Source of the DNA: a virus | Taxonomy: Duplodnaviria; Heunggongvirae; Uroviricota; Caudoviricetes | Length of the DNA stretch: 52,019 bases | Strand: one strand, 5' to 3' | IMG/VR virus record: IMGVR_UViG_2724679140_000011 | Span: 1 to 52,019 of that record | In this document: positions 4,558 to 25,104 of the stretch, one piece after another | Numbering within the stretch: the first letter of the stretch is position 1 | How the letters are laid out: each line of letters begins with the position of its first letter | Position numbers and translations under genes: made by a program | The notes under the pieces: generated by a model | The model's database searches: none | Seen by the model: only the letters and a program-made list of their open reading frames with translations | What the model was told of the DNA's origin: nothing

Positions 4558-4558
4558 C

Positions 4559-6217: not shown

Positions 6218-6328
6218 TGTGCTGCCCCCGCAGTGATGAGATAATAATTTTGTGATGTGGTTTTCATGGATTCCTCCTCACATGGCTGGCGGCCTCCCCA
6301 AAGGCTGCCAGCCCCCTTCCGAATCAAC

Positions 6329-8259: not shown

Positions 8260-8339
8260 CCTGCCAATTATCCTCACGCAAGCCGACCTCTTGGTCGGTT
8301 TTTTTTATGGGCATCAGCATATCAAATACTCATATTTAT

Positions 8340-8410
8340 CAAAAGCATAAAGAAAAAAGCAAATAATTTAGCATTTTAGTATTGCTCATGATTTACCATT
8401 TTGCTAAATT
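8340..8410. promoter_or_regulatory. second operator-like cluster (OL/PL-like)
   Basis: tttagcattttagtattgctca and ttttgctaaa half-sites resembling the 7463-7569 dyads. Confidence 0.4.
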
Positions 8411-8735
8411 CATTTCATCGGCAACCAACGGAGCCAATGAGATGAACACAAACTCCCAACATAAACCAATTGGCCAGATATTTGATATTCACGCCAAGCT
8501 TAGATCAGCAAATTCGCATTGGTCTTATTGCCATGCTGTGCAGCCTCACGATAAAGGATTTGATTACCAATTTAATACGATATTTGCCGGTGAGATGGAG
8601 TTCGCCGTTTACGAACGCATCGAAAATTATTTTGTATTAGTTGATTTCTTCAAGTCATATGACGAGGCATGTGATGATGCTAAAAAAATCATTGATGAAC
8701 ATCCTGACATAAAAAAAATGCTCTCTACCATTTAA
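8382..8735 (+). CDS. hypothetical early-left protein (likely true start near 8442, MNTNSQ...)
   Basis: First ORF after the OL-like sites; not arginine-rich so not an obvious N analogue. Confidence 0.5.
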   Translation: MLMIYHFAKFISSATNGANEMNTNSQHKPIGQIFDIHAKLRSANSHWSYCHAVQPHDKGFDYQFNTIFAGEMEFAVYERIENYFVLVDFFKSYDEACDDAKKIIDEHPDIKKMLSTI

Positions 8736-9238
8736 CTAAGTAATTAACTCAACTAATCGTCATTAACACCTTTTCGGGTGGGGAAAAACTCACCCTGAGG
8801 AAATGAAAATGCAAAATTCACTTTTTTTAACGAGCCAATTAAAACACCACAAATGCTTTTCGGCTCTGACAATATTAATGATTTTGGAAACAGAGTTAAG
8901 AGTTGCAGGACGGAAGGTGATTCAATGCAGCCGACTATCGAACCCTGCGAGGTTGTTGTTGCTTTCGTTGATTGTGGTGGCCGCGTTCTTACACCCAGCA
9001 TCTATATCTATGTTTTTTACGGGCGATATTTTTGGTCGTAACCACCTGTTTATCAAGAGAATAAAACCCTTGCCGGACGGGTCACTAAAGAATATTTCTG
9101 ACAATCTCCATTACCAAACTTTCGCACTTAATACTGGTGAGCAAAAAGACATCCGTATTCACGGAAGAGTTGTCGCATCTTTAGCTGTGAGGCGCTTCGT
9201 ATGACTTTCATCAAAGATAAATCGGCATATAGATCAGC

Positions 9239-9532
9239 ATGCCTTTATGCGGCCTGCGGTTACGAGGTAATCGCTCGACTTTACCTAAAAAAAACATATG
9301 GACGGTAATTATGAGTATTTTAAAAAGGCAGGATATTCAGGGCGTGAATATCAAAGCAGAACAGTTATCTGGTTTATCGCAAACATTATATGAATATCAC
9401 GACAAGCTCGACAGATTTCAACTTAAAACTATATGTGCTTTGGTTTATGACCTAGCCGCTGAGATTCACGGATGGACCGAAAAGGAGGAGGAAATAGCTA
9501 TGAGTTTGGAGGAAGAACAGCGCAATGGATAA
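9239..9532 (+). CDS. hypothetical protein
   Basis: ORF in same-strand early operon; start uncertain. Confidence 0.4.
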   Translation: MPLCGLRLRGNRSTLPKKNIWTVIMSILKRQDIQGVNIKAEQLSGLSQTLYEYHDKLDRFQLKTICALVYDLAAEIHGWTEKEEEIAMSLEEEQRNG

Positions 9533-9890
9533 ATTAATAGAAATATATCGACGCCGAATACTTAAAGCCGGGTTATTACGCCACCAGCATAAAACCGGAA
9601 GCACCTGCATCATTATTAATATGCCTAAGGGGGGAATAAACACCGTCGAATTAACAGAAATACTGCTTGATGGTCTGTTGAGACGATTCGAAAAGCTGGC
9701 TCTCAGTGAATACGGGAATATTGACGGCGTAAAAGCCATCAGAGGAATTTACAGCAACGCCGTAGATGTGAATGGCAGCGGTGAGTTCCTGACAGAAAGC
9801 GGAAAGGTATTAATCGACGATCTCATTGCTGAGCTGGTCGAGTTTGCCAAGAAACAAAAATCAGTCACAGCGGAGACAAGCCATGAGTGA
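9525..9890 (+). CDS. hypothetical protein, 121 aa
   Basis: ORF overlapping neighbours by a few nt (operon-style coupling). Confidence 0.5.
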   Translation: MDKLIEIYRRRILKAGLLRHQHKTGSTCIIINMPKGGINTVELTEILLDGLLRRFEKLALSEYGNIDGVKAIRGIYSNAVDVNGSGEFLTESGKVLIDDLIAELVEFAKKQKSVTAETSHE

Positions 9891-10095
9891 TCAGACACCA
9901 ATTATCACGCACGAACCAGTAAATATCGTGCTGACAATCGAGAACGGGAAAGTAATCCACGTGCGCCCGGTTCAGAGCGGCGAGGTTACAGCATCGCTGG
10001 AGACTTTTTTATGGATGGCTGAACGCGCCGGTTACACGATCACCCCACCTGCAGGAGAGAAGGACAATGGCCCTGACAGCGATACGAATTCCTGA
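9883..10095 (+). CDS. hypothetical small protein (MSDQTPIIT...)
   Basis: ATGA start/stop overlap with upstream ORF. Confidence 0.4.
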   Translation: MSDQTPIITHEPVNIVLTIENGKVIHVRPVQSGEVTASLETFLWMAERAGYTITPPAGEKDNGPDSDTNS

Positions 10096-10318
10096 GTGGG
10101 TGCACCTGCAGGCGGTCCGTGTTCTCCGCCAGTTCAGAGCCAGACGAATTCATCCCTGTCGTATGCACGGCTCCGGAAACCTGAGTCTGAGGGTTAATCG
10201 CCGCTGGCGGCTGCTGTCCCGAGACGGCGGCCAGAACTGGGAAGTAATGAGCCATGAACGATACAGCAAAGTTAAGGACCGGAAATGAACAATAAACCTT
10301 CAAACCAAAAGGAGAGTA

Positions 10319-10900
10319 TTGATGATTAATTCAACCATTACCCCTGAACCTACATTAACAGGCATCCGTTTTGGTAATCGAATTATTGGTTATTCAACTG
10401 CGGTTCGCCAGATCGACAACGGTAACTATGACAAACGAATTCCGGACGGGCTCGATCTGATAGCTTGCATTATGGAAGGGATTGAAAGCGGCTGGTTTAT
10501 GCCGTGTATTGAAAAACAAATCATCCTATGGCGCTGGCTTGTTGTCGCCGTGTTCATTGCTGAGGAGCAGGAGAAGAACGGGACTGTCGATGTTCAGAAT
10601 GACAAGGGCGGCGTAGATACAGCCGTTGTATACACCGGAAAACCCGGTTCAATCAGCATTTATCCGTGGTCTGAGCGTTTCGCTCTCGCTAACCATATCG
10701 AGGCGGGCGCAATTGAAAAATACGGGCCTGACGTTGGCCAGCAACTGGCGCTGCGTATGTATCAGGACATGGTTGTAACTGACGAAAAATGCGGATTCAG
10801 GCTGTCAGCGATGGGCCGGGAAGGATTCAACATACTGCATGACAGCTTCATTGAACAGATTCAGAAAGAAGGTATGCCAGACATGCCGGTTATGCACTAA
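10319..10900 (+). CDS. hypothetical protein, 193 aa
   Basis: ORF preceded by ggagag SD-like sequence. Confidence 0.55.
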   Translation: MMINSTITPEPTLTGIRFGNRIIGYSTAVRQIDNGNYDKRIPDGLDLIACIMEGIESGWFMPCIEKQIILWRWLVVAVFIAEEQEKNGTVDVQNDKGGVDTAVVYTGKPGSISIYPWSERFALANHIEAGAIEKYGPDVGQQLALRMYQDMVVTDEKCGFRLSAMGREGFNILHDSFIEQIQKEGMPDMPVMH

Positions 10901-10911
10901 GGAGGACGGAA

Positions 10912-11658
10912 ATGAACACAGTAACGATCAATAACAAACAGCTTCCGGCAGTCGAATATCGCGGTCAGCGTGTTGTGACGCTGGCGATGATTGATGAAGT
11001 CCACCAGCGACCGGAAGGAACCGCAAGCGCTGCTTACCTTCGTAACAAAGAGCGTTTTGTTGAAGGAATTGACACGTATCTTATTGAATATTCAGAAAAC
11101 AACGTATTACGTCCTTTCAATGTTGATGTGCCTTTTCGCGGCCTGAGAGTATTTACGGAAACTGGGTACTTGATGCTTACTAAGCCATTCAACGATGATT
11201 TGGCCTGGAAGGTTCAGCGCGACTTAGTTAACGCCTACTTCCGTACTCGCGCACCGCTAACGGAAATCGAGATGATCGCCGCGATGGCCGCCGACGCCGT
11301 TCGTCAACAGAAGCGCCTGAATCATGTGGAAGAGCAGATCGAAACAGTCACAGAAGCGGTGGAAACCATCAAACGCGGAAATATGCGCGCCGGATATGTC
11401 GGTTATCGCCAGGTGGTCGCCAAAAGCGGAATGACTGATGCCAAGTGTCGCAATCTGGTCAATGCCTACAGCATCCCAACCGATACGCACGAATTTATGA
11501 CACCTGATGGTCTTCTTTCGCGCCGGGCTATCGTGGAGCTGGAGCCGTTCATGAAAGCATTTCATCAGATGATGTCAGAGGCAGAGCCACGCGGCACACG
11601 CTGGTATCACCCGAAGATGGGACTTTTCCAGGTGATCGGATGGGAGGATAAAGCATGA
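10912..11658 (+). CDS. ORF6N/antirepressor-like domain protein
   Basis: N-terminal RVVTLAMIDEVHQRPEGTASAAYLRNKERFVEGIDTYLI resembles the ORF6N pattern; aggagg SD upstream. Confidence 0.55.
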   Translation: MNTVTINNKQLPAVEYRGQRVVTLAMIDEVHQRPEGTASAAYLRNKERFVEGIDTYLIEYSENNVLRPFNVDVPFRGLRVFTETGYLMLTKPFNDDLAWKVQRDLVNAYFRTRAPLTEIEMIAAMAADAVRQQKRLNHVEEQIETVTEAVETIKRGNMRAGYVGYRQVVAKSGMTDAKCRNLVNAYSIPTDTHEFMTPDGLLSRRAIVELEPFMKAFHQMMSEAEPRGTRWYHPKMGLFQVIGWEDKA

Positions 11659-12224
11659 TCATCCAGTCAAAACTTATTCGCGCCGCTCTGGTGTGCGCTG
11701 CTAAAAACGACGTTCGTTATTACCTGAACGGTCTTCACATCACGCCAAAACATATTGAGGCAACCAATGGTTTCGTAGCACTGCGCATGACTCACGGCAT
11801 CCGGACGAAGAAAAACATCATTGTCCAGTTCGAAGGTGGCGTCCCGGCCAAAGCCGAAACGACAGAGCTAATTTTCAGTAAAGAGCCGATCGCTGTTCAT
11901 CGCGACCAGTTTCAGCGACGACTGTCCATTACCGGCATTAAATTGGTGGACGGTTGTTTTCCGGATTTGGAACGCATCATTCCGAAAAAGTTTGACCTCT
12001 GTACTCACCCGGTGATCCAGGCTGGTTACCTGAGTTATCCAGAGAAGATGTTTGGTCGTGAGCGTAAATTTATTCCCGTCCAGTTACGTCCCTCCGGTGA
12101 CGGGCAAGCGGTCAGAATTCAGTTTGATTCCATCATCAACTCAATGTATGGCAATCCTGAATTTGTTGTGATGCCTTGTCGTGATCATGACGATTTCAAC
12201 GTAGCTCAGGAGCATCCGGAATGA
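11655..12224 (+). CDS. hypothetical protein, 189 aa
   Basis: Overlapping start with upstream stop. Confidence 0.55.
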   Translation: MIIQSKLIRAALVCAAKNDVRYYLNGLHITPKHIEATNGFVALRMTHGIRTKKNIIVQFEGGVPAKAETTELIFSKEPIAVHRDQFQRRLSITGIKLVDGCFPDLERIIPKKFDLCTHPVIQAGYLSYPEKMFGRERKFIPVQLRPSGDGQAVRIQFDSIINSMYGNPEFVVMPCRDHDDFNVAQEHPE

Positions 12225-12445
12225 AAATCGAATACCAGGACTACGGAGCCGTAGCGAACATCGTGATCACCAGCACTGTGTTCGAATTTCGTAAACATAA
12301 CCGGGTGGTGGATGCTACGTTGCTTTGTTCGCCGGACGTCATTGCAACTCACAGTGGCGTGTTTTTCATGAAGTCGGTTTTATCCGGTAAAACCCGCGAT
12401 ATGTTGCGGGCATATAAAACAGTTCAACAGGAGGCAGGACGATGA
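12221..12445 (+). CDS. hypothetical small protein
   Basis: Translationally coupled ORF. Confidence 0.4.
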   Translation: MKIEYQDYGAVANIVITSTVFEFRKHNRVVDATLLCSPDVIATHSGVFFMKSVLSGKTRDMLRAYKTVQQEAGR

Positions 12446-13074
12446 GTAACAAAATTAAAAACCCGGTTGTGCTTATTCATAAGCGTGAAAACAGCGACAC
12501 CTACGCAGTCGCAATCACCAGCGGTAGCCAGGACTATCACGATGCCGTTCTGATGGCGACCATGGAGCCAGACATGACGGGGGATAGCATCGATACCTGG
12601 AGTAAAACCGGCTATTACATGGCTGAAGAAATCGAGCGACTGAAACAAGCACTGTCCGCTGCGGAAAATAATCTGATTGATTCCGAATGCCTCGTCGCTG
12701 AATTAAGCAAAGCAAAGGATCACGCATATGGGCTGGTCGACACATACGACTGGCAACGTCAGCGTCTCCACACAGCCGCTGAGAAAGTCATCAAATGGTG
12801 CAGACAAGAAGCTGAACACCGTACCGGCGATCCAGAGAAAGCAGAAAACTATGCGTGCGTTAAAGAACTACGCGTCGCATTAACTTTTTGCAAAAGTTCT
12901 GGAGACATCAGGAAGAAAGGTCTGACCATCACCCTGCCCGATATCACATCAAAGGCATTCTGGAGCGGCACTGGAAAAAGCGCAAAATTCCATCCGGAAA
13001 CCTATAAACGCTGGGTGAAAGAAGCTATCAAACGGGATTGTGTTATTGCCGGGATCGGCGTGGAGGTGAAATGA
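12442..13074 (+). CDS. hypothetical protein, 210 aa
   Basis: ORF with aggagg SD upstream. Confidence 0.55.
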   Translation: MSNKIKNPVVLIHKRENSDTYAVAITSGSQDYHDAVLMATMEPDMTGDSIDTWSKTGYYMAEEIERLKQALSAAENNLIDSECLVAELSKAKDHAYGLVDTYDWQRQRLHTAAEKVIKWCRQEAEHRTGDPEKAENYACVKELRVALTFCKSSGDIRKKGLTITLPDITSKAFWSGTGKSAKFHPETYKRWVKEAIKRDCVIAGIGVEVK

Positions 13075-13161
13075 TGAATTGGCCTGAAGCATTCACCGCA
13101 GTAGGAGTTGCAATAGCGGTGGCATTTATTCTGTATTCACTTTTCCGCTGGGGATAAAGGA

Positions 13162-13404
13162 ATGTTCGCTCTGATTCAAAGTGGTCAGATATACACCGAT
13201 AGTGCTGGCTACCCGATAAAAATTATTCGCTGCATAAACAACTCTGTGTTGTACAGAAGAATGGATGGGCGAACACAGTCGGTAAAAATAAACGATTTTA
13301 ATGAACTGTTTGAACGGATCGATCACCAGGAATACCGACAAATTCTGGCAGAAACAGAGCAGGAAGCTCATTTGAAAAAATTACGAGCCATGAAAAGGAA
13401 GTAA
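13162..13404 (+). CDS. hypothetical small protein
   Basis: ORF in operon upstream of xis/int. Confidence 0.45.
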   Translation: MFALIQSGQIYTDSAGYPIKIIRCINNSVLYRRMDGRTQSVKINDFNELFERIDHQEYRQILAETEQEAHLKKLRAMKRK

Positions 13405-13562
13405 AGAATGAATAAAGCGTTTGAGCTATGGGTACACCAGCGTTACGGAAATCGCTATGACCTGACACGAGATGTTGACGGTTTCTACTGTCGTGAAATT
13501 GTGAGGCGAATGTTTGAAGTGTGGTGCCACTGTCGTGGGCTGAATATTGTGTGAGGTGAACT

Positions 13563-13772
13563 GTGGGGCTGGATTGCGTACCTATATCAACCTACTGCCG
13601 CAACGCGGGAGAAACGCTTGATGCCGTTAACAAACGGATACAAAGAGGAATATGGAAAGAAGGGGTACATGTATTAAAAGTCGACGGAGTTAAAGAACGT
13701 TGGGTCGACTTAATGGAGATTACAAAATGGGCAAGAAAGAACAAGGATCATTATCTCTCCCTAGAGGAGTAA
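13563..13772 (+). CDS. excisionase-like (Xis/AlpA-type) small DNA-binding protein
   Basis: 69-aa basic protein immediately upstream of and overlapping the integrase; GTG start with gaggtg SD. Confidence 0.45.
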   Translation: MGLDCVPISTYCRNAGETLDAVNKRIQRGIWKEGVHVLKVDGVKERWVDLMEITKWARKNKDHYLSLEE

Positions 13773-14905
13773 CTATTCGCCAGCATAAAACTGGCAGCAC
13801 CCTGGTTATCACTTTTACATATAAAGGGGTTCTGTGTCGGGAGCCCCTCTCCAGAATGGAAGCAAACGCGCGCGGTGTGAAGTACGCCGAGCGCCTGCTC
13901 GGGGAGATACAAAACCAGATCGTCAGTGGCACCTTTGAATATGCGAAATATTTCCCCAACTCCAAAAAGCTGGAGCTGTTCGGGGTGGTGAAGAAAACCA
14001 AAAACATAAAGTCCTACCTGGACGAGTACCTGAAAATCTGCCAGAACCGCAACCTGTCCCCGTCGACTATAAATGGTTATGAAAAATGCCTGTCGGCACT
14101 GTCAGCTCTGCATAAACTCCACGTGTCAGAACTGACGCCAGCGGTCCTTAAAAACTGGATAGCCAGCCGGAAAACAAAGCTGAAAACGACCAGGAATAAC
14201 CTTTCGTTTCTGCGCAGCGCCATTGATGAAGCTGTTACGGATGGCCTGCTGACCATTAACCCGGTAACCCTCGTCAGCGCCAGCCGGTACCACGTGATCG
14301 ACAGCAGCCCGAGCGCCGACGATTACGAGGTTGACCCGTTCACGCCAGCGGAGACCCTTGCCATTTACCAGAGCTGCAGGTACACGGAATGGGAAAACCT
14401 GTTCCGCTTTGCTTTCAATACAGGTCTGCGGAGCTCAGAACTGTGCGCGCTGCGCTGGGCTGATCTCGACACCATCGCGAACACAGCCCACGTTCAGGCG
14501 GCCAGTGTCGTAGGGATACTTAAAGGCACCAAGACAAAAGCCGGTACCCGTAAGGTGGAGCTGAACAGTGAGGCGCTGGCGGCCCTGCAGGCGCAGAAGC
14601 AATACACCTTTATGAAAAGTGAGTTCATATTCAGCGATCCGAAAACGGGAGAACCCTGGACGAACGCCGACGCTATCCGTAAAAAAGCATGGGTGCCGAC
14701 CCTGAAAAAAGCTGGTGTGCGCTACCGTAACCCGTACCAGACGCGCCACACATTCGCCACCAGACACATTAGCCAAGGTGTAAACCTTTTCTGGCTTGCC
14801 GGGCAGATGGGGCATAAGGGGCCGGAAATGCTGTTCCGCAATTACGGTAAATACCTGGCTGAATACGACGGGAAAACCGCAATGGAAGCTGGAATGAAGA
14901 AGTGA
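13700..14905 (+). CDS. tyrosine integrase, lambda-Int type (probable start 13727)
   Basis: C-terminal catalytic region with ...RHTFATRHISQGVNLFWLAGQMGHKGPEMLFRNYGKY (R...H..R..Y). Confidence 0.85.
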   Translation: MGRLNGDYKMGKKEQGSLSLPRGVTIRQHKTGSTLVITFTYKGVLCREPLSRMEANARGVKYAERLLGEIQNQIVSGTFEYAKYFPNSKKLELFGVVKKTKNIKSYLDEYLKICQNRNLSPSTINGYEKCLSALSALHKLHVSELTPAVLKNWIASRKTKLKTTRNNLSFLRSAIDEAVTDGLLTINPVTLVSASRYHVIDSSPSADDYEVDPFTPAETLAIYQSCRYTEWENLFRFAFNTGLRSSELCALRWADLDTIANTAHVQAASVVGILKGTKTKAGTRKVELNSEALAALQAQKQYTFMKSEFIFSDPKTGEPWTNADAIRKKAWVPTLKKAGVRYRNPYQTRHTFATRHISQGVNLFWLAGQMGHKGPEMLFRNYGKYLAEYDGKTAMEAGMKK

Positions 14906-14911
14906 TTTGAA

Positions 14912-14940
14912 GAAAAAACCCGGTAAATGCCGGGTCTGTT
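14912..14940. terminator. bidirectional rho-independent terminator
   Basis: acccgg-taaatg-ccgggt hairpin with A6 upstream and T-rich downstream, between convergent int and 14947..15714. Confidence 0.5.
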
Positions 14941-14946
14941 TGATGG

Positions 14947-15714
14947 TTATTCTGTCGCGCCACCTATCGAAACATAATCATGAAATTGATCGTCAATGAG
15001 TCGGTCCTTACAGATAACATGTACAATGTGACGACAACAGTTTTCATCATCATACGCACGACCCCAGCGAACAATCTCATCTACAGACAGATCATTCGCA
15101 CTCCATGGCAAAGTACCTGAAACACCACGCGCACCTGGACCAAGTATGTCCATAAATTTCTTCGTGCGTGAATTGTAGATCCGTACCTCGGCAATTCGAA
15201 TGATGCTACTGGCCCAAAGAGCACCACCGGCAATACTTTGAATGTTATCGCAGATGAGAAACTCATGCTTTCGCGCAAGCATTTTATAGATCTCACGCGC
15301 CAAACCTGCTGATTGGAAATCCTGTGCGATAACAGCGCTTTTCACTTGCTTTCCGGTCATCATCTGACCGTTCTCTTCGATAAAATTAAAGTCGTTGAAC
15401 TGTATACGACCTATTCTTATCGTTTTGTTATCGTCTACCATATCAAGACCCAAGAGGGTATTGACCAGATCCTGCATTGGAACCTTCGAATCAAGAAGGT
15501 CACTGCCATAGTCTAAAAAAAAGTCGTCGGTGGAACATCCCAGTTGATACACATCCAAGTAGTACTGAAACTCACCAGAACTGACAATGTACTCATCAGC
15601 CCTCAGTAAGCCAGCCTCGGCAGTGAAAAAATAGAATGACTCAATAAGACGTTTTTCGCCAAATGGCGTGATGTTCAAGTCCTTGTTATATGAAGGTATT
15701 AACGCAGGAGCCAT
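14947..15714 (-). CDS. hypothetical protein, 255 aa (cargo operon gene 2)
   Basis: 12 bp downstream of the 113-aa gene; lies between prophage integrase and the ssrA att copy. Confidence 0.6.
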   Translation of the reverse strand: MAPALIPSYNKDLNITPFGEKRLIESFYFFTAEAGLLRADEYIVSSGEFQYYLDVYQLGCSTDDFFLDYGSDLLDSKVPMQDLVNTLLGLDMVDDNKTIRIGRIQFNDFNFIEENGQMMTGKQVKSAVIAQDFQSAGLAREIYKMLARKHEFLICDNIQSIAGGALWASSIIRIAEVRIYNSRTKKFMDILGPGARGVSGTLPWSANDLSVDEIVRWGRAYDDENCCRHIVHVICKDRLIDDQFHDYVSIGGATE

Positions 15715-15725
15715 TCAGCAACCTT

Positions 15726-16067
15726 TTAATGGTAGTTAATTTCCCTGTAGTTCTTCTGCATGTATAGAGCAATTGCCGCTTCAATTTTCTTCAGCAGATT
15801 ACTGCTTACATACTGAGGATACTGATCTGCTGGCTTCACAACATAGCGCAATTTTTCTTTGTTCATGGCGATCTCAGCGAACGGGATCACGTCACCGTCA
15901 CGAACTTCATTGTTCAATGTCACAATAAACAGCTGACGTGCCGGGGAGACACGATCACTCAGTCTTCTCACGAAGAACTCGTTTGCTGTGTTTGAGTCAA
16001 CAAAAGAACTGACGAGTTGAGTCCGACGCTCAATCGTCTGTATCGATCTTCTCGCTACTGTTCTCAT
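15726..16067 (-). CDS. hypothetical protein, 113 aa (cargo operon gene 1)
   Basis: gaggagac SD before ATG; preceded by two strong palindromes. Confidence 0.6.
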   Translation of the reverse strand: MRTVARRSIQTIERRTQLVSSFVDSNTANEFFVRRLSDRVSPARQLFIVTLNNEVRDGDVIPFAEIAMNKEKLRYVVKPADQYPQYVSSNLLKKIEAAIALYMQKNYREINYH

Positions 16068-16109
16068 GCTAGTCTCCTCAACACTTCACTGGCTGTGCAG
16101 TGAAGGTAC

Positions 16110-16143
16110 AAAAAGCCACTGATGATAACAGCGTCATCAGTGG
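16110..16143 (-). terminator. 10-bp-stem hairpin followed by T5 on the minus strand, in the leader of the cargo operon
   Basis: ccactgatga-taacagcg-tcatcagtgg; a second 8-bp palindrome sits at 16084-16105. Confidence 0.35.
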
Positions 16144-16401
16144 CCCTTGATGGTGATAACCGCGGTTATCTAAATAGTATGATATTACCTTACGGGTAAT
16201 TCTTCAACGATTGCTCTGAATTGAATAGTCTTGAAGTGCTATGAACAGCACAAAACCGTGCTAATCACCGCCCCAGTGGCGCCTAAATATTTCAAAATGT
16301 TGGACAGAATCAGGACGTTAGAGGTACTACGATATGCACGTAAAATGCACGTGAGGTATTTTAAATTAGAAAAATCATTAACATTCAATTGGTTAAGCAT
16401 T

Positions 16402-16437
16402 TTTCGGATACGGGTTCAACTCCCGCCAGCTCCACCA
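16402..16437 (+). repeat. tmRNA (ssrA) 3'-end fragment, attachment-site core copy
   Basis: ggttcaactcccgccagctccacca matches the E. coli ssrA 3' terminus as recalled; upstream flank is not ssrA. Confidence 0.75.
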
Positions 16438-16544
16438 AATAATGATCCGGATACGTCCGGTGAAGTACAGAAAGCCCGCATGGCACAAGCCCTGCGGGCT
16501 TTTTTGTGTTTGTCGTTGTCCGAGAACATCCGGCTAAATCCGAT

Positions 16545-16600
16545 GATTATTGGTATACGTTTCGGTATACGGTAGGATGTATACCTAAAAGCGTATACCA
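16545..16600. promoter_or_regulatory. GGTATAC repeat cluster (2 direct + 2 inverted) upstream of integrase; candidate arm-type sites/operator
   Basis: ttggtatacg...ggtatac...gtatacc...cgtataccaa read directly. Confidence 0.4.
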
Positions 16601-16621
16601 ATTCATGAAGGAGCGGCCACA

Positions 16622-17821
16622 GTGGCACGGACAACACGCCCCCTGACCAACACCGAAGTTCTGCGCGCGAAAGCGTTAGAGAAGGATCTAACGCTGCATG
16701 ATGGCGATGGGCTTTTCCTGATAGTGAAAACTAGCGGCAAGAAACTCTGGCGCTTTCGCTATCAACGCCCAGCAACAAAACAGCGGACTATGATGGGACT
16801 TGGTGCTTTTCCTGCCCTTTCTCTTGCTGATGCCCGAGGGTTAAGAGCAGATTACCTTGCCCTATTAGCCAACGGAATCGACCCGCAAATTCAAGCTGAA
16901 GTTGCAGAGGAACAGCAGCAAATCGCTCTGGACAGTATTTTTTCGACGGTCGCCGCTAACTGGTTCCAGCTCAAAAGCAAAAGCGTTACCCATGATTACG
17001 CTAAAGATATATGGCGTTCACTGGAAAAAGACGTATTCCCCACCATCGGGGAGATCCCTGTCCAGCAAATCAAAGCCCGAACACTGGTTGAAGCCCTTGA
17101 ACCGATCAAAGCTCGTGGGGCGCTGGAGACGGTGCGCCGGTTGGTGCAGCGTGTTAACGAGATAATGATTTATGCCGTAAATACTGGTCTTATTGATGCC
17201 AATCCAGCATCAGGCATTGGAATGGCCTTTGAGAAGCCAAAAAAACAAAATATGCCTACGTTGCGCCCAGAAGAATTGCCTATGCTGATGCGTTCTCTCG
17301 TCATGTCAAATTTGTCTGTTCCGACTCGCTGCCTCATTGAGTGGCAACTCCTGACTCTAGTTCGTCCTTCTGAGGCTTCCGGTGCTAGGTGGGCTGAGCT
17401 CGATCTCGATGCAAAGCTCTGGACTATCCCAGCTGAACGAATGAAGGCTAAGCGGGAACACATAGTCCCTCTATCTCCTCAGGCATTAGAGATTCTTGAT
17501 GTGATGAAGCTAATCAGTGCCCATCGTGAACATGTTTTCCCGAGTCGGAATGACCCAAAGCAACCAATGAATAGCCAGACGGCAAATGCTGCTTTAAAAA
17601 GGATTGGATTTGGTGGTAGATTGGTTGCTCATGGATTGCGTTCAATTGCCAGCACCGCATTAAATGAAGCGGGTTTTAATGCAGATGTAATTGAGGCTGC
17701 TCTTGCACATAGTGATAAAAATGAAGTGCGCAGAGCATATAATCGTTCAACTTACCTTGAGCAACGAATAGGACTTATGAATTGGTGGGGCCAAAAAGTG
17801 TACGAGCGCAATCAATATTAG
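16622..17821 (+). CDS. P4-type tyrosine integrase (CP4-57 IntA-like)
   Basis: N-terminus MARTTRPLT...DGDGLFLIVKTSGKKLWRFRY typical of P4/IntA-like integrases; adjacent to ssrA att copy. Confidence 0.9.
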   Translation: MARTTRPLTNTEVLRAKALEKDLTLHDGDGLFLIVKTSGKKLWRFRYQRPATKQRTMMGLGAFPALSLADARGLRADYLALLANGIDPQIQAEVAEEQQQIALDSIFSTVAANWFQLKSKSVTHDYAKDIWRSLEKDVFPTIGEIPVQQIKARTLVEALEPIKARGALETVRRLVQRVNEIMIYAVNTGLIDANPASGIGMAFEKPKKQNMPTLRPEELPMLMRSLVMSNLSVPTRCLIEWQLLTLVRPSEASGARWAELDLDAKLWTIPAERMKAKREHIVPLSPQALEILDVMKLISAHREHVFPSRNDPKQPMNSQTANAALKRIGFGGRLVAHGLRSIASTALNEAGFNADVIEAALAHSDKNEVRRAYNRSTYLEQRIGLMNWWGQKVYERNQY

Positions 17822-17850
17822 TTAACTTGTTATACATGGAGATATAGTTC

Positions 17851-18309
17851 ATGGAGAATAATCTAGATAATTTATGTTATGAATTCTTTAGAGAGTTTTC
17901 ACGTTATGAATATTGCCTTAAGGCATGTGGACTTCATCATAAAATAAAAGATGCTAAAGCGAACTGGGATGAGTATGCAAAGCAAGTTTCTGAAATCATA
18001 AATAACACAACTGATCCAGAGCTAATTGCTGCTATCACCTACTTTAAAGAACACCCACCCAAAAAACAAATCATAGAAGATGACTCTTTAGTTTGGGATG
18101 ATTCTTTACCACAAGAAAAAGATTTAGCAAAATTTCTTTTTTTGTTAATCCGCCGTGTAAGAAACAATCTTTTTCACGGAGGAAAATTTAACGGGAAATG
18201 GTTTGAACCTGAACGTAGTGAGGCGTTACTGCAACATGGCCTTGTTATTTTGAGGCATTGCGGCACAAGGCATAGTGAAGTAAGCAAAGCCTATTCTGGA
18301 ATAGCCTGA
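17851..18309 (+). CDS. hypothetical protein, 152 aa, AT-rich
   Basis: ORF in AT-rich cargo block, convergent with the helicase gene. Confidence 0.5.
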   Translation: MENNLDNLCYEFFREFSRYEYCLKACGLHHKIKDAKANWDEYAKQVSEIINNTTDPELIAAITYFKEHPPKKQIIEDDSLVWDDSLPQEKDLAKFLFLLIRRVRNNLFHGGKFNGKWFEPERSEALLQHGLVILRHCGTRHSEVSKAYSGIA

Positions 18310-18401
18310 GCGGTGTTATAAAAGAGAAGTTTTTGTTACTGGAAGAATGATAAAATTCAAAAACTTCTCTATTGATTGTTTAAAAAATCGTCTAAATAAG
18401 A

Positions 18402-20984
18402 CTATTGTACCCAAAAGTTACGAAATATATTATGTATTTCGTTTTGAACTAATTGTGGCAGTTCTTCCATGTCAACTTTATTGTCCTTAATCCAATTAAT
18501 GCATTCTTCCTCATCTAAACTATCATTAGGAATAAGCTCTGAAATCATTACAGCAGCAGTTCTTGAAAAGCCAAGCCCTATTAGTGAAATCTGAGTTTTT
18601 AAACTTACACCCAGTTCTAAATAAACACCGATATCTTCAACATCTTTTGCTAAGTCTGTGCGATCTATCGAAAGATAAAAGCTTTTTAATAAATCATTAT
18701 AACATCCTAAAAGCCTTGGAGCTTGATAGCGAGCGATCTCTTCAACATCCTTCATAACCCCTCGTATTAAAGTCGCTTCTTTGAAAACAATATTTTTCTT
18801 TTTGTTATATCTTATTCTATCCGAGATCAATCTTGCTAGGGGATAACCTTTCATCCACTTGGAAACTAACAAGGCCTGTACGTAAGCTCCTTTTGAATTA
18901 TAACCTAGCTTCTTACTCAGAGTATCACTAATTCTAGAGAATGCGGATACATATGAATCTAACGCATCATTACTACCAGGTTCAGAAAGCAGTAATCTCT
19001 CTACAGGTTTGTTTGTATCCCGCGAAAATCTATCCCAAAGGTTTTGCATTAAAAGCGGGCTTATACCAGGATGCCGCACAACCAATTCGTGTGGAAAAGT
19101 TAAAGAATCAAAAACATCAAATATTGCTTCATTTAAAACATCGATATTTTTTATATTGTACTTTTCCATGTAAGGATTATTATCCAAGCCATTATAAAAA
19201 TAAAATGATGAACATAAATAACTAAATAGACTCTGGAGATTAGGATTCCGCTCAGACATACCAAAATGATGCTCTGAAAAAATATAGGAAACCAACTTAT
19301 CCATGTCATGGGAAATAGCATCCGTGGCGCGAGTTATAAATATATTTTTTTTGGTTTTTGGAGGCTCTCCATTCCAAATTTTTTCATTGTCGCTATCGAT
19401 GCAGATGACATTACCTTGGAATTCTTTTCCCCAACGACCAGCTCTGCCAGCAAGATTCCAAAAATCCTCTTCTCGCATCGGGGTTGAATTACCCTTTTTA
19501 GGGCCTCTTATAAAAATATTTTTACAAGCCATGTTTACGCCCTCAACTAAAGTTGAGGTACAAATTAAAAAATCAATCTTACCTTTACTAAACAATCGTT
19601 CAATCTCGCCCTTTATTATTAAAGGCATGTTGCCATAATGAAAAGCGACTCTCTTTTTTAGAGTGCGATTTAATGCGAAATTTTTATGTATAATTGTCTC
19701 ACTAAGCTCAACGAGAGCTAAAATTTCTTCATCCTCAGTCTCATTTTCTATACTTGCAGATATTAGCTTGGAAGTAGATTCTGCTTCAGCGGCTCCATTT
19801 ACGTAAACTACGTTACCAGAAGCCCCCTTACCTAAACAAAGAGCTACAAAAGGCAATCTTTTACTTTCAGGAGATGGTGCATTTTCTAAAGAAAAGTTTC
19901 CTAACTCGCGTTTTTCACCGTTTGCAAAATAATACATCAACCAATCTTTGGTCTTGCGTGGTTTTTGTTCTACCCATATTAAATTTTGATTAACTGTAAC
20001 ATAGTCACTTTTTATAGTTCTTTTGTTTTTTAATATTGGAGCATCACTGAGCAATATTTCAGGATTTAAGGTGAAAGGACTTGCAAAGATAACTTTTGAA
20101 TCAGGGTTATTTAGACAAGTCAGTTCAATTACATGTTGAAGAATAACACCTCTTCCACCATCACCGATCTTGTGTGCTTCATCAACAACTAAGACGTCTA
20201 TCTTTGGAATTTGTGAGAAATGATTGTAGAATAAATTTAATCTTTCCTGTGTAAATATGAAGACATTAGATTTTTCGCTCTGGTATACATTACTCAATGG
20301 TAGTGTCTGAATATTAACTATATTTGTTAAATTAGGATCCAAACGTTTTTGCAACTCAGAATATACTTCTGAAATCAATGCCCTTGTTGGTACGATATAA
20401 ATAACTAAGCAATTCTTATTTCTTTTTACAAACTGCTCCACCCAAGATTCCAGGATAAATGATTTTCCTACAGAGGTAGGAGCAGAGACACTAACCCATG
20501 AGTTTTCTTGTACCGCATCCCAAAACTCTGATTGAAACCTATTAGCATAAATATGCTTATCAGCATCTATTTCAATTGTATATAGAATTTTTCTTTTAGT
20601 TAGTTCTAACTGAGCCTTTAAGGGTAATCTTTCTTCGAAATCAGGGTTAAGATACCCCCTATTTTCAGCAAGTTGTATTGCTGGATTATTAGATAATGAA
20701 TCAAGAATTAATGCAGCACTATCTTTTCTTGCTTCACTTTTTTCATTCAATAAGCAATACTGTGCAATCCTTAAGGCTGCATCTTGGCATTTCTCATCAC
20801 TTGAGAAAGCCAAAGAACTAGCACATGTTAAAAGATAGCCGACATCCTCAGAACTAATCTGTGGGATTACATCTGATTTTAACTCTGGAAATTGATCTTT
20901 TATCGAGTTAGCGACTAATGCCTGATATTTTCTTAAGAATCCTTGATTCTTAATCAACCACCCAGATAAATCTCGCAACGACAT
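18402..20984 (-). CDS. SF2 helicase, 860 aa (Hachiman HamB-like)
   Basis: Walker A APTSVGKS, DEAH box VVDEAH, motif VI LAGRAGRWG; start overlaps upstream gene stop. Confidence 0.8.
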   Translation of the reverse strand: MSLRDLSGWLIKNQGFLRKYQALVANSIKDQFPELKSDVIPQISSEDVGYLLTCASSLAFSSDEKCQDAALRIAQYCLLNEKSEARKDSAALILDSLSNNPAIQLAENRGYLNPDFEERLPLKAQLELTKRKILYTIEIDADKHIYANRFQSEFWDAVQENSWVSVSAPTSVGKSFILESWVEQFVKRNKNCLVIYIVPTRALISEVYSELQKRLDPNLTNIVNIQTLPLSNVYQSEKSNVFIFTQERLNLFYNHFSQIPKIDVLVVDEAHKIGDGGRGVILQHVIELTCLNNPDSKVIFASPFTLNPEILLSDAPILKNKRTIKSDYVTVNQNLIWVEQKPRKTKDWLMYYFANGEKRELGNFSLENAPSPESKRLPFVALCLGKGASGNVVYVNGAAEAESTSKLISASIENETEDEEILALVELSETIIHKNFALNRTLKKRVAFHYGNMPLIIKGEIERLFSKGKIDFLICTSTLVEGVNMACKNIFIRGPKKGNSTPMREEDFWNLAGRAGRWGKEFQGNVICIDSDNEKIWNGEPPKTKKNIFITRATDAISHDMDKLVSYIFSEHHFGMSERNPNLQSLFSYLCSSFYFYNGLDNNPYMEKYNIKNIDVLNEAIFDVFDSLTFPHELVVRHPGISPLLMQNLWDRFSRDTNKPVERLLLSEPGSNDALDSYVSAFSRISDTLSKKLGYNSKGAYVQALLVSKWMKGYPLARLISDRIRYNKKKNIVFKEATLIRGVMKDVEEIARYQAPRLLGCYNDLLKSFYLSIDRTDLAKDVEDIGVYLELGVSLKTQISLIGLGFSRTAAVMISELIPNDSLDEEECINWIKDNKVDMEELPQLVQNEIHNIFRNFWVQ

Positions 20985-20985
20985 T

Positions 20986-21927
20986 TCAACTCTCCAATGC
21001 TTTAATTAAACTAGCCCTAAATGCTTTTACTGAAGGAAAAGGAAGAATAAAAACATGCATAGCAAAGCGATCAAGTTTTTTATTAACTATACCACCTTGC
21101 ACACTAGTTGACCATTTCCCGACTTTAGTATTAATCAAAGCAACTAGTTCACTGATATCAATTGAACTGGGCCCTTGTGGATAATCTTTAAGATCAAACC
21201 CAACTAAGCATATTCCTCTGTATTCCAATTTATTAAAATCCGGGCTATCAGGATCTAAGAATCTTTTCAACGCTTGTTCTAGTTCTATATCATCAACATT
21301 TAAGTGCGACTCCAGCAACTGCATATCACGTGTCTCAGCGCCTTCTATTCCCATAGAACTTTGAAGTAATGGAGCTATACTATCCATACACTCAGAAATA
21401 CCTTTGCTCAGATTGGAATAGAGTTTAGACTCGCCCCAGTATAAACATAATTTTTTATTATCTTTATCTACGCCTATATGTATTCCATCTGCACCATGGT
21501 AATGCATTTGAGAACTCGTTTTCAGGCTCATTTTGCAAATAATTTGTGGAAATCTAAGGAATTGCTCTGCAAATAAAAAAAGAATAAATTCACCGCCTTC
21601 GCCACTATTTGCAAGCCTAGTAAATAATTTTTTTGCTTGATTTGCTAATTTTGTTATTTTCGCTGTTGATTGTGTTTCATTAAAATATTGCACTGCCTCA
21701 TTGATTTTTTTCCTTGGAATAGCATAATCAACTACTTTATCGTTCAAGAATTGGATTAACGCGTCTACCCGAGGACGTCCATTGCCATCAAGATTAAGGC
21801 AATGAAAATGACAAGTTGCATTTGTATTTTCAATCAATGAATTAACTTTAACTTCACTAAAATAACTATTTAGTGTTTGACCATCATCTCTAATCAGATT
21901 TTCAAGCGCGACATGCAGTGCATCCAT
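20986..21927 (-). CDS. putative PD-(D/E)xK-like nuclease partner, 313 aa (Hachiman HamA/DUF1837-like, tentative)
   Basis: Candidate D...ExK motif (GVDKD...WGESK); immediately upstream of and coupled to the helicase. Confidence 0.6.
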   Translation of the reverse strand: MDALHVALENLIRDDGQTLNSYFSEVKVNSLIENTNATCHFHCLNLDGNGRPRVDALIQFLNDKVVDYAIPRKKINEAVQYFNETQSTAKITKLANQAKKLFTRLANSGEGGEFILFLFAEQFLRFPQIICKMSLKTSSQMHYHGADGIHIGVDKDNKKLCLYWGESKLYSNLSKGISECMDSIAPLLQSSMGIEGAETRDMQLLESHLNVDDIELEQALKRFLDPDSPDFNKLEYRGICLVGFDLKDYPQGPSSIDISELVALINTKVGKWSTSVQGGIVNKKLDRFAMHVFILPFPSVKAFRASLIKALES

Positions 21928-22120
21928 GAGTAGGTCCTTGCATATTTTATTTTCCTCATCATTTGCAATATATACTTATTTCAATAGCTTGCAACATTTT
22001 TACTCGACAATGATACTTACACCACACTCGCTGCTTAAAATCATTGTTATCGCTTTAACGTGATAAACGATTCTTTCAATCAGGTACTCATTGAAAGTTA
22101 AAAGTTACTTTGACCATACA

Positions 22121-22156
22121 CAGCGTGCGCTGCCCCGCCCGCCTGCCCGCTTCGCT
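22121..22156. other. cos-like site (P2/P4-type cohesive end region)
   Basis: Reverse complement gggcaggcgggcggggcagcgcac resembles recalled P2/P4 cos GGCGAGGCGGGGAAAGCAC; lies between cargo and delta. Confidence 0.4.
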
Positions 22157-22304
22157 TAACAGACTGGTTTTCATGCACCCCGTAAATCGTCTCAGAAGCC
22201 ACCACACAAGGGCTTTCGCGTCAAAAATGGCGCATGAGACTCATGCGTTTTCATGCGCTATAGATATGCACTCATACGCCTTCAGGCCAGCCAGGGAAAA
22301 GGCG

Positions 22305-22330
22305 TAAAAAATCCCGGTACTGGACCGGGA
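22305..22330 (-). terminator. rho-independent terminator after the delta gene
   Basis: tcccggtactggaccggga hairpin followed by T6 on the minus strand. Confidence 0.5.
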
Positions 22331-22352
22331 CTACGTGGGCGTATTTTGCTAA

Positions 22353-22625
22353 TCAGACAGGAATTAGCTGACGGCTTGACAGCTTTGACGCGGAGCCATA
22401 GCGGTTGAGAGTTTGCTGTTGTTTTTCTGGCATTTGTTCTTTGTCTGATTCCTGTTCATTGCGCCAAGGCTTCATAATTATCGTATCCACGCTTTCCAGA
22501 GCGGTAAATGTGCAGGAACATTCCAGATTCTGGCACTGATACCATGAGCGTTTAACCGATGGAGCTTCATAGGCGCTGGTTCTGGCGTGAGCGACCGTCC
22601 CACATTCAGGACACTTCAGGGCCAT
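22353..22625 (-). CDS. Ogr/Delta-family zinc-finger late transcription activator
   Basis: MALKCPECG...HARTS...YQCQNLECSCTF matches the Ogr/Delta CxxC...CxxC pattern; perfect aaggagg SD before this ATG. Confidence 0.8.
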   Translation of the reverse strand: MALKCPECGTVAHARTSAYEAPSVKRSWYQCQNLECSCTFTALESVDTIIMKPWRNEQESDKEQMPEKQQQTLNRYGSASKLSSRQLIPV

Positions 22626-22626
22626 A

Positions 22627-23181
22627 TCAGTACCCTCCTTTTTCATTAAGTCGGTTAAGGCGGGCCAGGAAAACTTTATGTTGTGCCGGGGTGAAACTGG
22701 TTGAAGCATCAGCGTACATTGATGCATCCACCGTTAATCCGGTTTCGTCGATAATGCTCTTGTATGCTGCTGAAATTACCGGAGTACGCACTTCCGTTTG
22801 TCGGGCTACAGCGGTTCGTAATATTTTCATTGCCGCCTCAAGCCCGTATGGAGCGCAAAGAAAAGGAGCCAGTGCGTCAGTGAGTGCATCACCATGCTCG
22901 CTCATGAAGTTTTCCGTTGCGCTTGTAACACAACTCTCCAGCACAATCTGGTGAGCATAAAGACCATCCCGTGCAGCACAGTTAATCTGCCATTCGAGGA
23001 CAGCAAGACGCTCACGAAGCTCCTCAAGCTGGCTGGCATATGCTGCCGGTTTTTCTTCAGTATTCAGCAGAGCCGCCAGACGAAGCTGGTAGGTACTTTG
23101 CGTATTACGTAGTGTCAGCCAGCTTTTTATCGCCGAGCGGTAATCGTTGAGAGCTTCCTGAGTAATGGTTCCGGCATTCAT
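22627..23181 (-). CDS. psu: Psu-like polarity suppression / capsid decoration protein
   Basis: 184 aa; HG.AL..ALAP and C-terminal FTPAQ..F segments resemble P4 Psu as recalled; adjacent to delta. Confidence 0.6.
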   Translation of the reverse strand: MNAGTITQEALNDYRSAIKSWLTLRNTQSTYQLRLAALLNTEEKPAAYASQLEELRERLAVLEWQINCAARDGLYAHQIVLESCVTSATENFMSEHGDALTDALAPFLCAPYGLEAAMKILRTAVARQTEVRTPVISAAYKSIIDETGLTVDASMYADASTSFTPAQHKVFLARLNRLNEKGGY

Positions 23182-23963
23182 TTCTTCTCGCCCCCTTTAA
23201 CCATGTCACGCTGTTTAAGCATCCGTGAACGCGCTGCAGGGCTGGGGGATTGTCTGGCATCCTGGATGGCTTTATCGTCCGCATAAATGCTGATCCCCGG
23301 CAGGGTAATATCATCCGTTGAAGATACGTTACAGGACAGTACCGGAGTGGTGAGTTGCTCGCTGATAAATTGCTTCAGCACACTTTCGGGGTCGTTTACG
23401 GTATGAACTACACCGATAACAGCAGAAGCGCTTCGGCCCAGAGTCATTTTCAACAGTCCAAGGATCTGAATAAGTTTCTGGCCGTGTTCCTTCATAAACT
23501 CATTCCAGAGCCACACTGCATGAGTTTCAATCAGGCGATTATGTTCGCTGATGTAGTGGTTTGCAGCATCCGCAGTTTTCCAGGGCAGGAATTCATTTTC
23601 TGCCACCTGAGCTGCCAGCAAATCTTCGAACTCATCCAGTGTTTCGCGTCCGAGGGCGATTTCTGCCCGCAGTTTTTTCATGCGTGGTGTCATATTTCCC
23701 TGATTCTCACGAAACAGGTTTCGCCATTCATCATTAAGCGCCTGCGTTTCCGTTTTTGTATCTTCCTGACGTTTACGGATAGTTTCAATCATTGCAGCAG
23801 CTTCAGTTTGTTTTCGCCGTTCTTCCTGCCAGACAGCTTTTGCTGCCTTAACTTTTTCCACCGCTTCGCGAATTTTCGGCGGGAGGGAGGATGTAATGTT
23901 TGCATCAGAGATCTGGTTAACAGTAGTCATGAATGCTCCGGTAGTGTTTTGTTGTCGTGTCAA
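23178..23963 (-). CDS. Sid-like coiled-coil protein (size-determination scaffold), tentative
   Basis: 261 aa, charged coiled-coil-like central region; first gene of the sid/psu/delta-type operon. Confidence 0.4.
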   Translation of the reverse strand: MTRQQNTTGAFMTTVNQISDANITSSLPPKIREAVEKVKAAKAVWQEERRKQTEAAAMIETIRKRQEDTKTETQALNDEWRNLFRENQGNMTPRMKKLRAEIALGRETLDEFEDLLAAQVAENEFLPWKTADAANHYISEHNRLIETHAVWLWNEFMKEHGQKLIQILGLLKMTLGRSASAVIGVVHTVNDPESVLKQFISEQLTTPVLSCNVSSTDDITLPGISIYADDKAIQDARQSPSPAARSRMLKQRDMVKGGEKK

Positions 23964-24089
23964 TTGTGCCGATGCCCATACAAGCGCACTACCGAGGGGG
24001 ATTGTGTCAGTGACAGAACAATGACCTTGTTCTGGCTAGCCAGAGAAATGTGTCATGTCTGATCTTCAACTTTCCTTTAATAAATACTA

Positions 24090-24300
24090 TTCACTACTGT
24101 TCACTTTGATAAAAAAATTGATAATACAGCTAGTTAAGAGGTGAAGGGTTGACAAGGCAGTATTCAGTGACTGTTCATGAGTGTTCATCGGAAGGTAGCG
24201 TGATTTATGATTTTTTTTCATCAAAAGTGAAATTTTTATTCCGAATGATTATTTCATTATTGTTCCTCACAACTATTCACCACTCTTCAGTAGTATTCAA
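24090..24300. repeat. iteron cluster of TGTTCAC-like repeats (P4 ori/crr-type, tentative) within a late promoter region
   Basis: tgttcac, tattcac, tgttcat and gtgaag copies read repeatedly in both orientations. Confidence 0.45.
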
Positions 24301-24843
24301 CAGATGATGAAATAGACGATTTTTCTTTGCCGGGAAATAACATGATTCCCCCCTTTCCCTGGTGTTGCATTTCAATCTGATTTTTATAAAACTAGAACTG
24401 CTCGGTCTTTTATGAATTTATTTGGATATATTTTTAGGTTAAGAATGCGTGGTTATTGATTTTATGCGGTTCTAATTCTTCTGAGCTTGATGCAATTCAT
24501 GAGTATATCCTGAAGTTAGGTTTGCAATGTAAAGCCATATGTAGAAATTGTGCATCCCTGCTGAATGGGTTGCGGTTTCAGTACCATTAAGTTCTATGAC
24601 TTATGGGGTAGTAACCCCTGGATGAAAGTTAGTTCCTATTAATGTCCCTGTATTTATAGTTCGCAGACATAATATCTATCATGCCATTTTATGTGGTTTG
24701 ATATAGTTTTAAATTCCATTAAATCAATATGTGACGCTAAATAAATAATGGGTGCGTAAGCGAGAAATATATACATAATAAGGAACTACCTGAATCCGGG
24801 GGGATTTATCCGGACTGATGAAGGAATTAAAGAGGGTAGATAA

Positions 24844-25104
24844 ATGCATGATATTTCTGTTTCTGCGCCAGCTCCGGCTGCGCCATTATTTCCTGTGCTG
24901 AACCAGCATGAGCGATTTTTACGTCTTCCCGAGGTGATGCATTTATGCGGCTTGTCCCGCTCAACTATATACGACCTGATAAGCCGCGATGCTTTCCCGA
25001 AGCAGATCCCGCTTGGTGGTAAAAATGTTGCCTGGGCACAGTCAGAGGTAAGCGCATGGATGGCGGATCGTATAAGTGCCCGCGGACGGGGATGTGATGC
25101 ATAA
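24844..25104 (+). CDS. AlpA/Vis-family small DNA-binding regulator
   Basis: [48 protein letters not shown] is an AlpA-type HTH. Confidence 0.7.

Follow-up and report, generated by a model that had tools for sequence, protein, structure and literature searches.

A displaced ssrA 3' fragment as the apparent shared boundary of a lambdoid prophage and a P4-like satellite in Escherichia coli

Fels-2 and SopE-phi are P2-like enterobacterial phages that integrate at the tmRNA gene ssrA, and tandem islands and displaced fragments at tRNA and tmRNA genes were reportedly treated by Williams in 2003. When an element integrates into a gene of this kind, the gene is restored and a fragment of it is left displaced; arrays of several elements in tandem, every one with a fragment and an integrase of its own, have been catalogued, and no integration target is more enriched than the tmRNA gene (Islander, PMC4383910). 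Excision of CP4-57 from E. coli K-12 yields ssrA deltaT357, whose tmRNA deltaU357 is inactive with trans-translation abolished, and the G3:U357 pair is needed for tmRNA alanylation (PMC10107115). The loss of tmRNA linked to CP4-57 excision has been described as a regulatory switch, termed 'rescue-switching' (Onodera et al. 2022, PMC10107115). In P4-like satellites, the interval from int to psu is a known defence hotspot (de Sousa & Rocha 2021, PMC8628076; Rousset et al. 2022, PMC9122126).

We examined a 52,019-nt stretch of Caudoviricetes DNA (IMG/VR record IMGVR_UViG_2724679140_000011; hereafter the window), in which an earlier note, made from the sequence alone, had reported a 26-nt exact match to the ssrA 3' end. 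Local alignment of the 363-nt E. coli ssrA gene, taken from an annotated genome, against the whole window matched positions 16402-16437 to ssrA nt 328-363 with 34 of 36 identities, and the next-best local alignments scored at background level. The two mismatches were adjacent, at 16409-16410 (TA in the window vs CG in ssrA). The surrounding region (16380-16440) reads ...ttggttaagcattTTTCGGATACGGGTTCAACTCCCGCCAGCTCCACCAaataatg, and within it CGGGTTCAACTCCCGCCAGCTCCACCA (16411-16437, + strand) is the ssrA 3' end including CCA, identical at 27 of 27 nt, so that the match proved exact as claimed and its length was corrected to 27 nt. This 27-mer had a single occurrence in the window and was matched in none of 100 shuffles.

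No ssrA similarity was observed 5' of 16402 in the alignment of the full 363-nt gene, and ARAGORN found no tmRNA or tRNA genes in the 52-kb window. The Rfam tmRNA model (RF00023) scored 17.3-28.2 bits, below its gathering score of 47, with confident alignment only over the last ~36 nt. An intact (363-nt) or pseudogenised ssrA at 16075-16437 was looked for and ruled out using ARAGORN, Rfam and Smith-Waterman alignment, only nt 328-363 being present, and the earlier description of the upstream flank as something other than ssrA, and of the fragment as an att copy rather than the gene, was borne out. The fragment is a genuine att copy, neither a chance match nor a gene. Judging from its flanks, a lambdoid prophage to the left and a P4-like satellite to the right, it is a displaced ssrA 3' fragment that is attR of the prophage and attL of the satellite simultaneously, in agreement with the earlier proposal that it marks the junction of two tandem integrative elements. 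This fragment and a second one at 28847-28866 both lie on the + strand, the ssrA orientation looked for under an Islander-type criterion, and each could be paired with an integrase gene (16402-16437 with 13700-14905, and 28847-28866 with 16622-17821).

The left flank (1-16401, ~16.4 kb) was recognized as the right arm of a lambdoid prophage from Pfam domains and from a one-piece match to a prophage. It contains genes for a Q antiterminator (1902-2732, -; Pfam Antiterm), a Toprim primase (3589-4557, -; Pfam), a helicase of the prophage replication module (4559-6217, -; Pfam) and a CI-like S24 repressor (7570-8259, +; Pfam Peptidase_S24), and to the right of the repressor gene the arm is completed by early-left genes followed by xis and int. 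The excisionase (13563-13772, +), whose ORF had no Pfam match, was named from the RefSeq annotation at the colinear position in NZ_CP054665. The lambdoid tyrosine integrase (13700-14905, +) has Arm-DNA-bind_2 and Phage_integrase domains, and its RefSeq start corresponds to window 13727; both the domains and the colinear prophage agree with the lambdoid-type element and integrase previously placed on this side. Between int and attR are two cargo ORFs on the - strand (14947-15714 and 15726-16067; 255 and 113 aa), which matched phrog_3307 and phrog_2594, both of unknown function, and had no Pfam or PADLOC matches. That the related prophage of strain A41 has other genes in this int-att slot suggests a slot for variable cargo or morons. 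From int through att, the DNA was 94% identical to Escherichia phage PhiR12 records. A full-length match to the Rfam STnc100 sRNA (96 bits) was also observed at 16-224 (-), downstream of the Q gene and at the start of the late region.

Window positions 1-16500 matched the prophage of E. coli IGC_EcoliInv_1.1 (NZ_CP054665; hereafter IGC) in one piece, with 99.9% identity and 100% coverage, and the prophages of three other mouse-derived strains were nearly as close. Leftward, the IGC prophage includes lysis genes, terminase, lambda-type head and tail genes and host-specificity protein J, and its left end is an intact ssrA adjoining smpB, called by ARAGORN as a tmRNA with the ANDENYALAA tag (L006 8414-8776). 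The distance in IGC from the end of ssrA to the position equivalent to window 16437 is 47,082 bp. By colinearity with this strain, an intact ssrA should lie ~30.6 kb upstream of the window start, and the left boundary of the phage is probably the one seen in IGC, with both ssrA and the phage attL outside the window. The earlier note had expected ssrA-related sequence at the other boundary of the lambdoid element, and it was found as the intact ssrA of this 99.9%-identical prophage in another strain. Among the features of a lambdoid phage, Q, the S24 repressor, the replication module and a terminal int-xis were observed in the window, and the head and tail genes were seen in NZ_CP054665 only.

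The right flank extends from 16438 to 28866 (12.43 kb), and its gene content and boundaries agree with the ~12.4-kb P4-like element with a P4-type integrase at 16622 that had been described to the right of the fragment. The P4-type tyrosine integrase (16622-17821, +; Arm-DNA-bind_3, Phage_int_M and Phage_integrase) is 62% identical to K-12-type CP4-57 IntA. Following it are an unknown ORF, considered satellite cargo (17851-18309, +), and genes for the helicase HamB (18402-20984, -; PADLOC HamB1, 1135 bits; Pfam DEAD and Helicase_C) and for HamA (20986-21927, -; PADLOC HamA1, 450 bits; Pfam HamA), and from these matches HamB and HamA are assigned as a Hachiman defence system within the int-psu cargo slot (17851-21927). 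The remaining genes are delta (22353-22727, -; Pfam Ogr_Delta), psu (22627-23181, -; Pfam Psu), a sid-like ORF matching a Psu-like PHROG and supported only as a Psu-like paralogue (23178-23963, -), an AlpA-family regulator (24844-25104, +; Pfam Phage_AlpA), an Ash/Icd-like protein (25104-25655, +; Pfam), a DUF5375 protein (25876-26199, +; Pfam) and the alpha primase-helicase (26163-28547, +; Pfam). A CI-type immunity RNA (C4; 25322-25409, +) was observed with 84.6 bits to Rfam RF01695, above the gathering score, and its target sites (25163-25253, +) are just upstream. A match to isrK (76.7 bits) was also above the gathering score, and one to c4-a1b1 (45.9 bits) was just under the gathering score of 46.7. 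The P4 core set of int, psu, delta, sid, alpA and alpha is thus all there and in conserved order, with sid only as the Psu-like paralogue. The 19-mer GGCGAGGCGGGGAAAGCAC, which we take to be the P2/P4 cos sequence, had no match here with up to three mismatches allowed, and a G+C-rich cos-like stretch is located at ~22125-22150, in the interval separating HamA from delta.

At the left end of the satellite, a terminator scan found an intrinsic terminator with a hairpin and T-run (16472-16505, +). A terminator 3' of the ssrA CCA is kept in strains with abutting P4-type elements, CP4-57 included, as observed in alignments of 789, M8 and IGC. A candidate IsrM sRNA at 16428-16505 was rejected, scoring 22.6-39 bits where the gathering score is 376, with only the terminator hairpin and a degenerate stretch resembling the ssrA end aligned; these alignments suggest that IsrM of Salmonella has its end at a homologue of this terminator, in an island linked to ssrA. 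A repeat scan found four TTGGTATACG-type repeats, two direct and two inverted, between attL and int (16550-16601), and two more ~55 nt upstream of attR (28772-28795). The exact 10-mer TTGGTATACG occurred three times in the window (16550 +, 16592 - and 28772 +), with degenerate neighbours at 16562 and 16578. These exact copies were confined to the vicinity of the two satellite ends, the copy at 28772 lying ~75 nt before the far end, and the repeats are plausible candidates for arm-type Int binding sites.

The far end of the satellite was determined from genomes in which the site is empty. The sequence at 28847-28866 (+), TTCAGACTCCGCCAGCCCCA, is a degenerate ssrA-like core only loosely similar to TTCAACTCCCGCCAGCTCCACCA, and its local score of 13 was equalled or exceeded in 11 of 40 shuffles; support for a degenerate copy by ssrA similarity alone failed, since this score is within the shuffle range. 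Where the site is empty, as in the E. coli genomes Ecol_224, RM10809-3 and numerous others, ATCATGATTGGACGGTATAAGG and then the ypjA autotransporter gene come immediately after ssrA...CAGCTCCACCA. BLAST alignments between these genomes and the window have 28847 as their first position, which is within the ssrA 3' end, and extend into ypjA. Because the empty-site alignments begin at 28847 within the ssrA end, 28867 is the first chromosomal base, where the flank ATCATGATTGG... begins. An unoccupied attB with these same flanks exists in Ecol_224 and RM10809-3, in which ssrA...CCACCA is joined straight to ATCATGATTGG. At the level of sequence, the empty-site genomes prove 28847-28866 to be the satellite attR, with its boundary at 28866/28867. 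The degenerate second copy earlier placed at 28847-28870 was therefore confirmed as a copy and its end was moved to 28866, positions 28867-28870 being chromosomal flank; ssrA-related sequence is thus present at the far boundary of the P4-like element, validated by the empty-site comparison.

We compared this attR with those of related elements. With attL it shares only CCGCCAGC, an 8-nt block, and a shifted TTCA, and it is without U357 and two further nucleotides (a 3-nt deletion). The attR of K-12 CP4-57 is of the same type, with ~30 nt of element sequence to its left in common. Relative to the wild-type ssrA end, CAGC-TCCACCA, the attR end was observed as CAGC-CCACCA (K-12, CX08 and WP4-S18), CAGC-CACCA (E21845), CAGC-CCCA (the window and TUM14664) or CAGC-CA (strain 190 and U90), and every one of these variants, before ATCATG, is without U357. 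The satellite of strain 190 is 99.9% identical to that of the window, yet its attR end differs by two C residues, and the difference in length may reflect either real variation of the crossover site or a homopolymer sequencing error.

Beside the satellite attR, the ypjA/EhaD-type autotransporter gene was observed to be split (29027-32416, -) into a beta-barrel piece (29027-29353) and two AIDA-repeat parts (29382-31484 and 31424-32416), in agreement with a pseudogene annotation in related genomes. A third att scar was also observed at 35322-35368 (-), consisting of the 47-nt 3' half of tRNA-Ile(CAU) ileY, from the anticodon loop to CCA; strain 190 has the identical sequence in its ileY 3' half and downstream flank. 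The scar is adjoined by a third tyrosine integrase (35565-36881, +; Arm-DNA-bind_3). In E. coli RM10809-3, which has 99.9% identity over 33000-45000, the island extends over ~53 kb as far as an intact ileY, and its cargo includes two-partner-secretion/CDI genes, tellurite resistance, Ag43 and CbtA/CbeA. The window contains only the first ~16.7 kb of this ileY island, including ShlB/FhaC (45339-47078), and an intact ileY is absent from it.

We consider it very probable that the fragment at 16402-16437 is the scar of successive site-specific integration events at the tmRNA gene of E. coli, involving the ~47-kb lambdoid prophage and the 12.4-kb satellite. Both elements, with a tyrosine integrase each, use the ssrA 3' end as attB, and the phage attP would bear a near-copy of that end, TTTCGGATACGGG...CCACCA. 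The attL of IGC reads ...TTTCGGACGCGGG...CCACCA and then continues as phage sequence, and the attR of both IGC and the window reads ...TTTCGGATACGGG...CCACCA. Because the IGC attL keeps CG and attR has TA, the TA at 16409-16410 can be assigned to the phage attP as a variant, and strand exchange would accordingly lie to the right of 16410, within the identical 27 nt. Exchange inside these 27 nt would regenerate a full ssrA at the phage left end, outside the window, and would leave a hybrid fragment at 16402-16437 in which the 5' 9 nt, with both mismatches, are phage-derived. In the Rfam alignment the G-to-A change breaks the first T-stem pair, and had the exchange taken place further left, the regenerated ssrA would have been damaged. 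The same fragment is continuous with the satellite left arm (terminator, candidate arm-type repeats and int), so that it is also the satellite attL. We infer that the satellite crossover took place inside CCGCCAGC, the sole block identical in attL and attR, which is consistent with the K-12 excision product CGCCAGC-CCACCA (PMC10107115 table).

Both integrases are probably still active. We consider it unlikely that these are instead fossil att scars, with one or both elements fixed as cryptic remnants that do not excise and a fragment that has no present role in recombination. The degeneracy of the satellite attR, with its 8-nt block identical to attL and its 3-nt deletion, would fit such a history, as would the lack of a match to the P2/P4 cos 19-mer and the classical naming of CP4-57-type elements as cryptic. 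Both integrase ORFs, however, are full length with every domain present, xis and AlpA-family genes are there, and the P4 core gene set of the satellite is complete. In addition, relatives of the lambdoid int-att region have been deposited as phage genomes, with E. coli C and K-12 as listed hosts, and the K-12 CP4-57, whose attR is no less degenerate and whose Int is 62% identical, does excise (PMC10107115).

The occurrence of the two elements in other genomes was examined with a query spanning the junction (15000-18000), which had matches in 1,628 of 5,426 complete E. coli genomes, mostly via the int half; 4 genomes carried at least 80% of the phage part. From 16402 on, the satellite was 99.8-99.9% identical in strains 789, Res13-Lact-PEB17-18 and 10035210-2, where it is directly against ssrA, and strain 190 carries the same satellite behind a different lambdoid prophage. 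Within IMG/VR contigs, the phage arm and core adjoin the empty-site flank (L015, L017), the left ends of other islands (L012-L014, L016) or a similar P4-like left end (L018), and in strain genomes they adjoin CP4-57 (IGC and M8) or a P2-like prophage (A41). From these neighbours, the lambdoid phage and the satellite are seen to occur independently of each other. In the A41 prophage, a relative of the one studied here, the int-att slot was observed to hold other genes, including one for a protein with a STAS-like domain.

Either order of integration gives an identical final structure. We favour, as more parsimonious, a satellite that was resident first and a phage that arrived later, because complete genomes often have a P4-type element at ssrA and seldom have this phage. 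The reverse order, with the phage first entering an unoccupied ssrA and the satellite later using the displaced 36-nt fragment as a secondary attB, is possible, although we hold it to be the less probable course by a clear degree. It predicts the same final structure, the displaced fragment keeps the whole TTCAACTCCCGCCAGCTCCACCA core seen in the satellite attL, and the phage beside the empty-site flank in L015 and L017 indicates that phage-first lysogens exist. Set against this is the far greater frequency at ssrA of P4- or CP4-57-like elements than of the phage, which is the difference between 1,628 and 4 genomes noted above.

The exact junction of this phage with this satellite was absent from the 5,426 complete E. 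coli genomes, and the exact 36-nt phage-type att fragment had no matches in GTDB species representatives, and for these reasons the arrangement rests on this one assembly. The absence of this exact pairing from all of the complete genomes is what could be expected of a chance similarity or of an assembly mis-join at a short repeat, in which case the fragment would not be an att site. We regard this explanation as highly improbable given the 27-nt exact match that no shuffle reproduced, and given that each flank independently ends or begins at the fragment in many genomes and viral contigs. Analogous junctions were also observed, in which CP4-57 takes the place of the satellite or another lambdoid prophage that of the phage. 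A clean attP of the free phage was sought in GenBank phage records and none was obtained, as the PhiR12 records start inside att or run into sequence of the P4-like type. In one of these, phage PhiR12_5 (PV340554.1, 4292-5153), the att core was observed to be followed by a terminator of the P4-like type and by fragments of an integrase (312 nt) and of an IS407-like transposase; this record may include DNA of an adjacent island, or its termini may have been placed within a prophage region.

With serial integration as the preferred reading, the products of excision can be predicted. Excision of the phage would restore ssrA directly abutting the satellite, with an expected junction of ssrA...CGGGTTCAACTCCCGCCAGCTCCACCA joined to AATAATGATCC, and the phage should leave cleanly within the 27-nt core. 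Satellite excision from the arrangement seen here would alter the dead fragment only and leave ssrA untouched, the expected junction being ...TTTCGGATACGGGTTCAACTCCCGCCAGC joined to CCCAATCATGATTGG. If the satellite were to excise after loss of the phage, or en bloc from the true ssrA, the product would be ...CAGCCCCA joined to ATCATG, encoding a tmRNA without the G3:U357 pair. In the instances where the satellite is directly adjacent to ssrA, its excision would be expected to inactivate tmRNA, because its attR is without U357, like that of CP4-57 of K-12. The interposed lambdoid prophage may then act as an insulator that uncouples satellite excision from tmRNA loss, and the series of attR lengths (CAGC followed by CCACCA, CACCA, CCCA or CA) may reflect repeated imprecise exchange by P4-type Int at the last ssrA nucleotides. 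We put forward these two ideas jointly and tentatively, at somewhat less than even probability for the pair. If the insulator idea is true, the coupling of satellite excision to tmRNA loss would depend on lysogeny by the ssrA phage.

The type of feature described here is already known, and the pairing is new in how known modules are combined, not in kind. Its analysis gives precise boundaries for two mobile elements, places the window in the E. coli ssrA-ypjA-ileY hypervariable region, and makes the excision products predictable, with satellite excision expected to be harmless to ssrA only while the phage lies between. As in tandem tDNA islands, ssrA would be regenerated at one end and a displaced 3' fragment left at the other, with the middle fragment being attR of one element and attL of the next; there is no difference in principle from those islands, although the pairing found here was unseen in the 5,426 complete E. 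coli genomes. Like the ssrA phages Fels-2, SopE-phi and the PhiR12 type, the phage in the window would carry an attP copy of the ssrA 3' end, so that its integration preserves ssrA. It is lambdoid, whereas Fels-2 and SopE-phi are P2-like, and its attP copy has two mismatches in and next to the T-stem (16409-16410) that mark the fragment as phage-derived. The satellite resembles other P4-like satellites in its int, variable cargo, delta/psu/sid, alpA, CI RNA and alpha, with HamAB in the int-psu slot, and differs in that the P2/P4 cos 19-mer was unmatched. With CP4-57 of K-12 (Kirby et al. 1994; Wang et al. 2009; Onodera et al. 2022, PMC10107115) it shares a P4-type Int just downstream of the ssrA end, a conserved terminator after CCA, an AlpA-family regulator, and an attR of the type AATTCAGACTCCGCCAGCC... 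that is without T357 and has the same ypjA flank. The CP4-57 cargo consists of yfj genes, whereas the satellite in the window carries Hachiman and the full psu/delta/sid/alpha set, and the window attR is two nucleotides shorter than that of CP4-57 (CAGCCCCA vs CAGCCCACCA). Finally, the attL of CP4-57 is the functional gene, whereas that of the satellite in the window is the displaced fragment behind a lambdoid prophage.
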